IMG/VR virus record: IMGVR_UViG_3300029577_000119
Strand: one strand, 5' to 3'
DNA length: 4,793 bases
DNA from: a virus
Lineage: Duplodnaviria > Heunggongvirae > Uroviricota > Caudoviricetes
Shown: positions 1,455 to 4,042 of the stretch, one piece after another
How positions within the stretch are numbered: position 1 is the stretch's first letter
Layout: each line of letters starts with the position of its first letter
The notes under the pieces: generated by a model
Seen by the model: only the letters and a program-made list of their open reading frames with translations
Told to the model about the DNA's origin: nothing
The model's database searches: none
Program-made: the position numbers and the translations under genes

Positions 1455-1586
1455 ATGATTTACGCAATCGCGGGAGGCGCTCGCATGGGTGCCTTCCAAC
1501 TAAATGAATCTTTACTTGAACGAATCACCCGTAAATTACGTGACGGATGGAAAAGAGTTGAGGTCTTATTATGCGCAATGAAATAG
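1455..1586 (+). CDS. cIII: cIII-like protein (FtsH inhibitor / lysogeny regulator homolog), 43 aa
   Basis: Not in ORF track (too short). ATG 1455 preceded by AAGGA at 1444-1448. Translation MIYAIAGGARMGAFQLNESLLERITRKLRDGWKRVEVLLCAMK* matches, from memory, the lambda CIII N-terminus and core amphipathic region (ESLLERITRKLRDGWKR). Shorter than lambda CIII (54 aa) at the C-terminus. Confidence 0.8.
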   Translation: MIYAIAGGARMGAFQLNESLLERITRKLRDGWKRVEVLLCAMK

Positions 1587-1723
1587 CCATCAATCACCAG
1601 ATGCTTCGTGCTGCACAGAACAAAGCAGTAATAGCCAGATTTATTGGTGATTCCAAAATGTGGTTTGAAGCAAATAAAGCGATGAAATCAGCTATCAACC
1701 TTCCGTGGTATCGCAGGAAATGA
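1571..1723 (+). CDS. kil: Kil-like small protein (putative host cell-division inhibitor), 50 aa
   Basis: ATG 1571 with GAGGT 8-12 nt upstream; overlaps the 3' end of cIII by 16 nt in another frame. Translation MRNEIAINHQMLRAAQNKAVIARFIGDSKMWFEANKAMKSAINLPWYRRK*. The IARFIGDSKM motif resembles my recollection of lambda Kil (..ATFIGDEKM..), and the position directly after cIII matches kil in lambda and P22. Identity is from memory and position only. Confidence 0.55.
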   Translation: MRNEIAINHQMLRAAQNKAVIARFIGDSKMWFEANKAMKSAINLPWYRRK

Positions 1724-1878
1724 GTTTTACAGATAACTGGTCAGACGAAGAATTCATTCGTCAGATGAAAGAATTAATCGGTAACGAAGGAGATATTCAT
1801 GTCACTTGCAACCACAGTGAAGGAGAGCAAGTTACAGAGACGCATGTACACGCAGAAAGCTCTCTGGTATCGCCATAA
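1720..1878 (+). CDS. hypothetical small acidic protein (52 aa), candidate 1 for the kil-erf slot
   Basis: ATG 1720 overlaps kil stop (ATGA at 1720-1723). Translation MSFTDNWSDEEFIRQMKELIGNEGDIHVTCNHSEGEQVTETHVHAESSLVSP*. No well-spaced SD. Overlaps the alternative ORF 1799..1969 in a different frame. Confidence 0.35.
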   Translation: MSFTDNWSDEEFIRQMKELIGNEGDIHVTCNHSEGEQVTETHVHAESSLVSP

Positions 1879-1969
1879 TGGCGATCGCGAAGGAATGCGG
1901 GTATGCCTTAATTTGTCCAGAGTCGAAGTTTTAAATCAGCGTTATTTCCTTGGGGAATGTCCATTCTGA
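1799..1969 (+). CDS. hypothetical small basic protein (56 aa), candidate 2 for the kil-erf slot (arf position in P22)
   Basis: ATG 1799 preceded by consensus SD AAGGAG (1786-1791) at 7-nt spacing. Translation MSLATTVKESKLQRRMYTQKALWYRHNGDREGMRVCLNLSRVEVLNQRYFLGECPF*. Ends 10 nt before the erf ATG. Not in ORF track (under 60 aa). Confidence 0.45.
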   Translation: MSLATTVKESKLQRRMYTQKALWYRHNGDREGMRVCLNLSRVEVLNQRYFLGECPF

Positions 1970-1979
1970 GAACAAACAT

Positions 1980-2585
1980 ATGAGCAAAGAATTTTACGCA
2001 AGACTGGCAGCTATTCAGGAGAATCTGAACGCGCCAAAAAATCAGTACAACTCATTCGGTAAATATAAATACAGAAGCTGCGAAGATATTCTTGAAGGCG
2101 TTAAGCCGTTACTGAATGGTCTGTTTTTATCAATCAGCGATGAAGTTGTGTTGATTGGTGATCGGTATTACGTGAAAGCCACGGCAACTATTACCGATGG
2201 CGAAAACAGTCATACGGCAACCGCTCTTGCACGAGAGGAAGAAAGCAAGAAAGGAATGGATTCTGCACAAGTTACGGGAGCTACAAGCTCTTATGCACGC
2301 AAGTATTGCCTCAATGGTTTGTTCGGCATTGATGATGCGAAAGATGCAGATACAGACGAGCATAAACATCAGCAGAACGCAGCAGCAAAGCAATCAAAAC
2401 CATCACCTACACCTGAACAGGTTCTAAAAGCATTCACTGACGCAGCAATGCAGAAAAACACCGTAGAAGAGCTTAAACAGGCGTTCGCCAAAGCGTGGAA
2501 GATGCTCGAAGGCACACCGGAGCAGCACAAAGCGCAGGACGTTTACAACATCAGACGAGACGAATTAGAAGGAGCTGCTGCTTAA
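1980..2585 (+). CDS. erf: Erf-family single-strand annealing protein (essential recombination function)
   Basis: ORF-track ORF 1950..2585 begins at a TTG; the ATG at 1980 gives MSKEFYARLAAIQENLNAPKNQYNSFGKYKYRSCEDILEGVKPLL.., which closely matches my recollection of the phage P22 Erf N-terminus. 201 aa. Followed immediately by ssb with TAATG overlap. Confidence 0.85.
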   Translation: MSKEFYARLAAIQENLNAPKNQYNSFGKYKYRSCEDILEGVKPLLNGLFLSISDEVVLIGDRYYVKATATITDGENSHTATALAREEESKKGMDSAQVTGATSSYARKYCLNGLFGIDDAKDADTDEHKHQQNAAAKQSKPSPTPEQVLKAFTDAAMQKNTVEELKQAFAKAWKMLEGTPEQHKAQDVYNIRRDELEGAAA

Positions 2586-2969
2586 TGGCACATTCGATTA
2601 CTGTAAGACTAAACAAGCCCGCAAGAGAGTTTCAGGCCGNNNNNNNNNNATATCGGATTCAACATCCGTGCTGGCGTTCAGTATTACGATCGCCAGACAA
2701 AAAAGAAAGAATGGACAAACTACAGCGCCGTTGTATTTGCCAAGCCGGGAGCGCAAGCGGATTACTACCGTAGTGTTCTTGTTGAAGGTGGAATTGTGGA
2801 AATTACCGGAGAAAACATCAGGGTTGATGTTTATCAGGGGCAAAATGGTCAATCAATCACTCTTGAATTACTGAATGCAAAGATTGGATTTGCAGCTTCA
2901 GGAAATGGCCAGCAGCAAAGTAGCAATCATCAAAATCATCCTGAATACGACGATTCAATTCCCTTCTAG
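2585..2969 (+). CDS. ssb: phage single-stranded DNA-binding protein (SSB), interrupted by an assembly gap
   Basis: ATG 2585 overlaps erf stop (TAATG). N-terminal MAHSITVRLNKPAREFQA runs into the N-run. After the gap, the frame with codons at 2652.. reads IGFNIRAGVQYYDRQTKKKEWTNYSAVVFAKPGAQADYYRSVLVEGGIVEITGENIRVDVYQGQNGQSITLELLNAKIGFAASGNGQQQSSNHQNHPEYDDSIPF*, ending in the acidic DD(S)IPF tail diagnostic of bacterial/phage SSB. The two halves are in different frames relative to window coordinates, so the 10 Ns do not represent the true gap length. Confidence 0.7.
2640..2649. other. run of 10 N (assembly gap or masked bases)
   Basis: Ten consecutive n characters in the sequence, inside the ssb reading frame. 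Confidence 0.95.
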
Positions 2970-2992
2970 ATTAGCAAAATAAGGCTCCCATT

Positions 2993-3289
2993 ATGCCAGC
3001 GCCTCTGTATGGTGCGGATGACCCGCGCAACTGCTCCGGTAGCTCCAAGGCGGAGGTGCTGGAAAATATCAAAAATAATTTCGACACGTTTATCGATCTT
3101 CCACCAGAAACAAAAGCAGAACGGATGTACCGACGCGATATACAACTCGCGTTAAAAGATGAGAAGGACCGAACAAACGAAACAGCAATGAGACCGTTGC
3201 GAAAAGAGACAATAGACAAATTCCCTGAATATATCGACCCGCGCCTGCGTAATTACCGCTCACGCTATGGCGCTATCAGTAATGACTGA
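2993..3289 (+). CDS. hypothetical protein, 98 aa; possibly Abc2-like anti-RecBCD protein (unverified)
   Basis: ORF-track ORF; ATG 2993 with AAGG 8 nt upstream. Translation [98 protein letters not shown]. The Abc2 suggestion rests only on size (P22 Abc2 is about this length) and position distal to the recombinase in the pL operon; sequence not confirmed from memory. Confidence 0.6.
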
Positions 3290-3299
3290 GGAATTTACC

Positions 3300-3464
3300 A
3301 TGAGAGGACTTGCATACAATCCCGGCATTCTTCCGGCAGAAATGATTATTCGCCAACGCGTAAAGCCAATGCCATCGAGAGAGAAATTGCTTAAGAGAAA
3401 GAGTTTCGGTTCTGTTAATGACAACAAATATCTGAATGCAATGTTGCGGAGTGGGAAGAAATGA
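3300..3464 (+). CDS. hypothetical small basic protein (54 aa)
   Basis: ORF-track ORF 3267..3464; I prefer the in-frame ATG at 3300, which has GAGGA at 3288-3292 (7-nt spacing) and begins after the 98-aa ORF stop (3287-3289). Translation [54 protein letters not shown]. Stop overlaps the next ATG (ATGA 3461-3464). Confidence 0.5.
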
Positions 3465-4042
3465 AACAAATGTCACTAATTAAGATGGATGGTTTTCTGA
3501 AAGGTAAATGCATCCCATGTGATTTAAAGGTTAACGAAACAAACGCTGAATATCTGGTGCGTAAGTTCGGTGAACTTGAATCAAAACTAGAAACGGCGTT
3601 GCGGGAGTGTCGTTCTGCTGGAATCACGATTGATAACCTTGAGGCCAAGTGCGCGGCGCTGGCTGTGGAGAATGCGTGGCTGAATAAATTTATCGTACAG
3701 AGTTGCTACGTGTTTGACGGCGAGCAGGGTGAACTATCTGATGCGTATATCTGCGCAATAGACGGAAGGATGCCGCAAACCCAAGTCACCGACGCTTTTT
3801 GGGATGAAGTGAAGACTGAAGCACGCAAGGAAGGCGCTTACTTTGTGGCGAACAGAATGCTGGCTGCCTGGGATGCTGGTTTTATTGATGATACTGCGAA
3901 GAACGCAGCGGATATTGCCAGGATGATTCTTACCTCTACTGAGTTTATGGCTAATGCGCCGGAAGGCGATTTCGATCGCTCGTTCGCTGATGGTGTACTC
4001 GAAGACATCGCCGCCCAGATTCGCAAGGGGGACGCGCAATGA
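3461..4042 (+). CDS. hypothetical acidic protein, 193 aa (phage accessory 'ea-region' type gene)
   Basis: ORF-track ORF; ATG 3461 overlaps upstream stop (ATGA). Contains a CxxC pair near the N-terminus (CIPCD), a predicted helical segment ([40 protein letters not shown]) and an acidic C-terminal half. Not recognised. Confidence 0.75.

Follow-up and report, generated by a model that had tools for sequence, protein, structure and literature searches.

An intact abc2 gene with a divergent central cassette, predicted in the early-left recombination module of a P22-like or lambdoid phage or prophage

Gene content of the locus

The stretch of viral DNA analysed here (4,793 nucleotides, Caudoviricetes; in the following the window) finds its best whole-length matches, at ~95% identity, in Sf101, Stx1a phages and E. 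coli prophages. Its genes follow each other in the order cIII, kil, small ORFs, erf, an SSB-like gene, abc2 and a DUF2737 gene (Table 1), which matches the layout of P22, HK620, HK75 and Sf101. Synteny with P22 is accompanied by identities of 62% for c3, 75% for Erf, 61% for Abc2, 72% for orf56/DUF2737 and 67% for the C-terminal part of EaE.

Table 1. Genes and sequence features of the window
Feature	Position	Strand	Remarks
TolA-like coiled-coil protein, 322 aa	463..1431	+	Upstream of cIII, PL operon
cIII	1455..1586	+	PF02061, E = 4e-15
Lambda-type kil	1571..1723	+	PF06301
Two small overlapping ORFs	1705/1720..1878 and 1799..1969	+	Before erf
HK75 gp33 homologue, ~52 aa	1720..1878	+	Arf position; tblastn 89% over 56 aa, E = 2e-31
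erf, Erf-family single-strand annealing protein	1950..2585	+	PF04404, E = 2.4e-44
SSB-like gene, ~127 aa	2585..2969	+	P22 abc1 slot; C-terminal DDSIPF, an SSB-type acidic tip
Shine-Dalgarno-like AAGG	2981-2984	+	8 nt before abc2 ATG; sequence inspection, consensus resemblance only
abc2 CDS, 98 aa and TGA	2993..3289	+	Abc2 / anti-RecBCD protein 2 family; homology and dN/dS
Conserved N-terminal segment of Abc2, residues 1-12	2993..3028	+	97% nt identity to P22 and to Sf101
Variable central cassette of Abc2, residues 13-66	3029..3190	+	Helix 1, loop, helix 2; RecC-binding body (predicted)
Nearly invariant C-terminal tail of Abc2 (starts RPLRK), residues 67-98	3191..3286	+	Putative effector segment; disordered in cryo-EM maps
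Pro68 codon CCG	3194..3196	+	Equals P22 Abc2 P68 (PpiB site)
DUF2737 gene, 54 aa	3300..3464	+	PF10930, E = 8.2e-29; 94% to HK75 gp29
193-aa P22 EaE relative, then Ead/Ea22-like protein	Downstream of DUF2737 gene	+	Pfam/PHROG/tblastn

The TolA-like protein has a highly charged centre rich in Glu, Ala, Lys and Arg, with EAKAKAE-type repeats. In E. coli prophages it carries the PGAP name 'cell envelope biogenesis protein TolA'; no Pfam match was obtained, and the protein maps to PHROGs 1376 and 21365, families to which no function is assigned.

The gp33-like ORF likewise gave no match in Pfam, and its Sf101 orthologue matches PHROG 2123. The defence nuclease OLD of P2 is reported to become toxic in response to HK75 gp33 alone, for which a role as a new RecBCD inhibitor or manipulator has been hypothesised (bioRxiv 10.64898/2026.07.10.737580). 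In comparison with abc2, this small ORF may be the more interesting gene of the window.

The Erf protein is presumed to be the recombination partner of the Abc2 protein encoded further downstream. The SSB-like gene placed between the two has no Pfam match; its Sf101 orthologue (96-100% identical) matches PHROG 44, 'single strand DNA binding protein', with E = 2.1e-27. Comparison with the SSB proteins of HK620 and HK75 revealed no similarity beyond the acidic C-terminal tip, which is shared with HK75 SSB. Within this gene the window holds 10 N at 2640-2649 where Sf101 has 6 nt (GGGAAA), and the reading frame across the gap is presumed. Neither abc1 nor arf of P22 could be traced by tblastn anywhere in the window (best E of 0.78 and 1.1, respectively). 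The SSB-like gene takes the place of abc1, and the module is therefore to be described as erf-ssb-abc2. Pfam and PHROG searches with the ORFs of the 4.8-kb window revealed neither an exonuclease nor a Gam domain. Chi sites (GCTGGTGG) are absent as well (0 in the window), which is uninformative because only 0.07 are expected.

For the DUF2737 gene the start at 3300 was adopted, as in Sf101 and the homologues; the 65-aa version of the ORF listing begins at 3267 and overlaps abc2. A DUF2737 gene lies directly 3' of abc2 also in P22 (orf56), HK620 (hkaI), HK75 (gp29) and Sf101 (gp24), and some database entries (P0039, P0041) represent fusions or read-throughs of Abc2 and DUF2737.

Coding evidence for the reading frame

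The earlier note had pointed to a 98-aa ORF distal to the recombinase, at positions 2993-3289 and in the slot that follows ssb, equivalent to that of P22. Such a frame is indeed present: on the + strand, 98 codons run from ATG to TGA at exactly these positions, downstream of erf and the SSB-like gene and upstream of the DUF2737 gene. What the note says of P22 likewise holds, the gene order there being erf-abc1-abc2 and P22 Abc2, with 97 aa, being of similar size.

The length of this ORF is in itself not significant, because mechanical ORFs of 120-160 aa arise by chance on the opposite strand of the window (ORF listing). Its coding status follows from homology and from purifying selection in its frame. 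Compared codon by codon with P22 abc2 (Nei-Gojobori), the gene has a dN/dS of 0.23 at a dS of ~1.2, which shows that the abc2 frame is under purifying selection. It might be argued that long mechanical ORFs are common in the window, for instance an 82-aa antisense ORF at 2971..3219, and that the frame discussed here is a chance ORF or the true gene lies on the opposite strand. However, the homology on the + strand is overwhelming, selection acts in that very frame, and overlapping ORFs have no family match better than E = 0.4. This applies to three antisense ORFs and one out-of-frame ORF overlapping abc2, which are without family support and were rejected as genes. A chance ORF is refuted by the homology evidence, and the probability that we would still grant to this reading is negligible.

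The gene is of full length, with the N- and C-termini of the family intact and with neither a frameshift nor a premature stop. A scan of positions 2500..3700 for promoters and terminators found none; this is consistent with read-through transcription inside an operon, and is not evidence for it.

Identity of the gene product

The encoded protein belongs to the Abc2 family. It matches PF11043 ('Bacteriophage P22, anti-RecBCD protein 2') with residues 1-98 against positions 1-97 of the 97-position profile (E = 1.4e-35), scoring 121.8 bits at a gathering cutoff of 25, and PHROG 656 ('abc2 anti-RecBCD') over 1-98 of 98 residues (E = 3.5e-44). Its sole sequence match in the PDB is chain A of 8B1T/8B1U, 'Anti-RecBCD protein 2' (phmmer against 8b1t_A: residues 1-98 versus 1-97, E = 3.3e-32). 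The comparison by BLASTP with P22 Abc2, which the earlier note had put forward as a check, gave 60/98 identities (61%) and 77% positives with one 1-residue gap over the full length (E = 1e-42; P22 sequence from an annotated P22 record), and tblastn against P22 gave an Abc2 identity of 61.2%. Of the two alternatives that the note had left standing, an Abc2 homologue or an unknown protein serving counter-defence, the former is therefore the right one in view of the BLASTP, PF11043, PHROG 656 and 8b1t_A full-length matches, and the latter is not needed. The description as 'anti-RecBCD' is to be refined in one respect: Abc2 is now seen as a modulator or hijacker of RecBCD, not as a Gam-like blocker (PMC9836394). 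No match to the Gam family (PF06064) was found for the ORF, and a Pfam scan at E <= 1 returned PF11043 and a single noise match only.

Full-length homologues were found by tblastn in 226 phage records, most of them labelled Abc2, anti-RecBCD or 'inhibitor of RecBCD nuclease'. The closest among these phage homologues, with 93.9% protein identity, occur in TL-2011a and in Stx2a-converting phages. A search of 5.8 billion proteins returned 125 clusters, every one of which contains PF11043 and is assigned to Escherichia, Salmonella or Shigella; identity reaches 93% in the best cluster. Abc2-family DNA was detected in 1101 of the 5426 complete E. coli genomes searched, and the best chromosomal copy (98.7% DNA identity) is labelled 'phage anti-RecBCD protein'. 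Hundreds of E. coli prophages have abc2 among their annotated genes, and near-identical alleles are labelled in public phage and E. coli records; the gene is therefore an ordinary one. No NCBIfam model matched Abc2 or its neighbours, and the RefSeq PGAP name of Abc2 therefore does not derive from an NCBIfam HMM in the searched library.

P22 Abc1 (94 aa, HTH-like) was considered as an alternative identity and rejected on the basis of the aforementioned tblastn of Abc1 against the whole window; P22 Abc1 matches sigma-70 r4/HTH families, and the abc2 ORF has no such matches. One database protein (P0113, 151 aa) joins PF11043 with PF16473, perhaps through a fusion or an artefactual frameshift.

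Conservation of RecC contacts and of Pro68

P22 Abc2 is an extended helical protein that lies on the 'inactivated helicase' (Chi-recognition) domains of RecC and displaces RecC residues 252-294, and DNA binding and unwinding by RecBCD are not substantially changed by it (PMC9836394, eLife 2022). The host prolyl isomerase PpiB is recruited via Pro68 of P22 Abc2, which is placed in the PpiB active site, and in a P68A mutant co-purification of PpiB is lost. Beyond approximately residue 66 the protein is disordered in cryo-EM, with weak density heading for the RecB motor domains (PMC9836394).

Fifteen Abc2 residues touch RecC in 8B1T (Fig. 4 source data of PMC9836394). In the protein encoded by the window (window Abc2) eight of them are identical (A3, C14, S15, G16, L36, E39, K41, R47), E39 and R47 being invariant in the family. 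Conservative changes affect another three (Y30F, K44R, H48R), and three further changed positions contact RecC by the backbone only (I33F, M34I, E45M). A side-chain contact is lost at one of the 15 positions, R13N, with which the salt bridge to RecC D324 is gone. The RecC-contact set of 8B1T is conserved in window Abc2 with its core kept, and binding of RecC by this allele is predicted. An AF2 single-chain model displays helices at residues 19-35 and 41-75, with a pLDDT of 85-90 over residues 21-60.

Pro68 is invariant, and the pair R67-P68 invariant or nearly so, in alignments A1 and A2 (21 and 42 sequences). Window Abc2 keeps all 20 invariant columns of alignment A2, and carries E72 at a position where A72 is nearly invariant in both alignments. 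The latter substitution, together with the resemblance of the window to prophage regions of E. coli chromosomes and the run of N that breaks the adjoining SSB-like gene and makes its frame unverifiable there, might indicate a cryptic prophage in which abc2 is decaying or no longer functional. The full-length ORF with intact ends, the 20/20 invariant columns, the lack of a frameshift or early stop and the neighbouring genes, all of which are intact and stand in operon order, speak against it, and we regard a remnant as very improbable.

Mosaic structure of abc2

The gene is composed of two conserved ends and a variable centre, with intragenic mosaic junctions recognizable when window positions 3029..3213 are compared with the records L001, L003 and L004. 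Residues 1-12 and C14-S15-G16 correspond to the N-terminal strand contacting RecC 322-328 (contact list from PMC9836394, Fig. 4 source data). The central cassette has ~60% nucleotide identity to P22, Sf101 and HK620, as against 87-100% per 30-nt block to TL-2011a and ~95% to TL-2011a and Stx2a phages (Sak4 modules). At the protein level, residues 17-66 share 21/50 identities with P22 Abc2 (42%). Judged by its sequence, the cassette is an allele class apart from that of P22, HK620 and Sf101. The 3' end of abc2 and the downstream genes are ~100% identical to Sf101.

In TL-2011a the same abc2 allele comes after the gene of a Sak4 recombinase, which shares 99% identity with Sak4 of HK620; HK620 itself, however, has a P22-class allele. 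Since the same allele occurs with different recombinases, the docking-helix cassette reassorts independently of recombinase type, which is consistent with Abc2 acting on a host enzyme and not on a specific phage recombinase. The dN/dS within the cassette is 0.25-0.31, and there is therefore no sign of positive selection.

Across the family, conservation is highest in the C-terminal tail, with a mean column entropy of 0.37 bits for residues 67-98 versus 1.11 for residues 17-66; the dN/dS of the tail versus P22 is 0.086, with dS saturated at ~2. Variable docking helices and a conserved tail are properties of the family as such, and are not specific for the window. In mEp013, a 'hypothetical protein' located after the erf/SSB cluster (L005:2450-2740) is a Pfam-negative Abc2 relative of 35% identity; it keeps the equivalent of P68 and the motif PEY(I/V)DPR(L/M)R.YR.R.G...ND.

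Proposed mechanism and alternative readings

On sequence grounds, the gene is an intact, full-length abc2 of a P22-like/lambdoid prophage or phage, situated in the recombination module of the early-left (PL) operon. For this identity jointly with RecC docking, PpiB recruitment and Chi-independent recombination by this allele we estimate a probability of roughly 0.88; family membership, conservation of key residues, synteny and purifying selection are established here, and RecC binding, PpiB interaction and functional outcome are what we infer for the allele.

According to this model, abc2 would be expressed from the PL operon along with the other genes of the module gp33-like / erf / ssb-like / abc2 / DUF2737. 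The C14-S15-G16 strand together with E39, K41, R44, R47 and R48 would contact RecC around 316-328, Pro68 would recruit host PpiB, and the invariant C-terminal tail probably extends in the direction of RecB. RecBCD carrying Abc2 would still bind and unwind DNA, with its Chi response and nuclease polarity altered, and by this alteration it would stop destroying phage DNA and serve as a resection nuclease of the phage. Resection by such a Chi-blind RecBCD would provide single-stranded DNA for the SSB-like protein and Erf, leading to Chi-independent recombination. The use of RecBCD as resection nuclease would explain a module without an exonuclease of its own. That Abc2 phages use a reprogrammed RecBCD in this way is a published idea (PMC9836394; PMC3784561), and the absence of an exonuclease fits it, within a view limited to 4.8 kb. 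RecC binding and a RecBCD that promotes Chi-independent recombination are known for P22 Abc2 only (PMC9836394; Murphy 2000 via PMC5928155, PMC3784561).

Against the model stand the absence of abc1 and arf from the window and the identity to P22 of only 42% in the RecC-binding centre. Both abc1 and arf are needed by P22 for full activity. Affinity and outcome of the window allele could differ from those of P22 Abc2, because the RecC-binding centre is diverged to this extent and the R13 salt bridge is lost.

A rival reading holds that the divergent cassette has changed the function of Abc2, such that it addresses another RecC variant or surface, acts as a true inhibitor, or escapes a defence that senses Abc2 or tampering with RecBCD. 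The distinct allele class (~60% nucleotide and 42% amino acid identity to P22), the swapping of the cassette independently of flanks and recombinase type, and the loss of the salt bridge to RecC D324 by R13N would be in line with it, and defence systems that monitor RecBCD manipulation are known (PMC9836394; bioRxiv 10.64898/2026.07.10.737580). However, the cassette displays no signal of positive selection at its dN/dS of 0.25-0.31, C14-S15-G16, E39, K41, R47 and P68 are kept, and the trigger of OLD in HK75 is gp33, not Abc2 (bioRxiv 10.64898/2026.07.10.737580). Moreover, the allele class of the window is common in E. coli prophages beside the P22 class, that is, in the same host species. A functionally shifted allele has no positive support, and we consider it quite improbable.

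In a related vein, the two Abc2 allele classes, with invariant ends and ~58% different RecC-binding helices, might be functionally distinct, for example tuned to different RecC states or diversified so as to evade host systems that guard RecBCD, the tail being the true effector that reprograms RecB. This appears unlikely to us. Should the classes differ in function, the window would provide a natural 'domain-swap' reagent that separates RecC docking from effector function.

The gene carries little weight as a discovery: the family has a solved structure and decades of genetics behind it, and many E. coli prophages and Stx-converting phages contain near-identical copies already labelled phage anti-RecBCD protein. 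Its value lies in annotation, in that the window is marked as holding an Erf/SSB/Abc2-type module of the kind that hijacks RecBCD and does not block it. Such a module bears on encounters of prophages with defence systems that watch over RecBCD integrity. The contrast between varying, swapped docking helices and a strongly purified, disordered tail could guide experiments on the effector step of Abc2.

Comparison with known systems

Window Abc2 resembles P22 Abc2 (8B1T/8B1U; PF11043) in length (98 versus 97 aa), in 61% identity over the full length and in the shared N- and C-terminal segments. It further shares with it P68, the core RecC contacts and the place in the PL operon after erf and before DUF2737/orf56. 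It differs in residues 17-66, of which only 42% are identical, in the substitutions R13N, Y30F, K44R and H48R, and in an extra residue, Y80. The module differs from that of P22 by an SSB-like gene upstream instead of abc1, and by the lack of a P22-type arf.

With the Abc2 proteins of TL-2011a and Stx2a phages ('anti-RecBCD protein 2 family protein') it shares the allele class, at 93.9% protein identity, whereas abc2 of TL-2011a follows Sak4 and an HK620-type SSB, and not Erf and a short SSB-like protein. HK620 (hkaM-sak4-ssb-abc2) and HK75 (gp33-erf-gp31 ssb-abc2) have the same succession of accessory ORF, annealase, SSB, abc2 and DUF2737, and the annealase-SSB-abc2 layout has already been described for both HK620 (PMC5928155) and HK75 (bioRxiv 10.64898/2026.07.10.737580). 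Their Abc2 proteins, in contrast, are of the P22 allele class and 61-62% identical to window Abc2, and their SSBs show no sequence relationship to the short SSB-like protein of the window. The protein in the Erf position of HK75 is weakly similar to window Erf (29% over its C-terminal part).

Lambda Gam and T7 gp5.9, which inhibit RecBCD as DNA mimics, have in common with Abc2 the target RecBCD and the general purpose of protecting phage DNA and promoting its recombination. They are unrelated in sequence to window Abc2, which has no Gam match. Gam and gp5.9 fill the DNA-binding site of RecBCD and block all of its activities; Abc2, by contrast, attaches to RecC, and unwinding continues unimpaired (PMC9836394).
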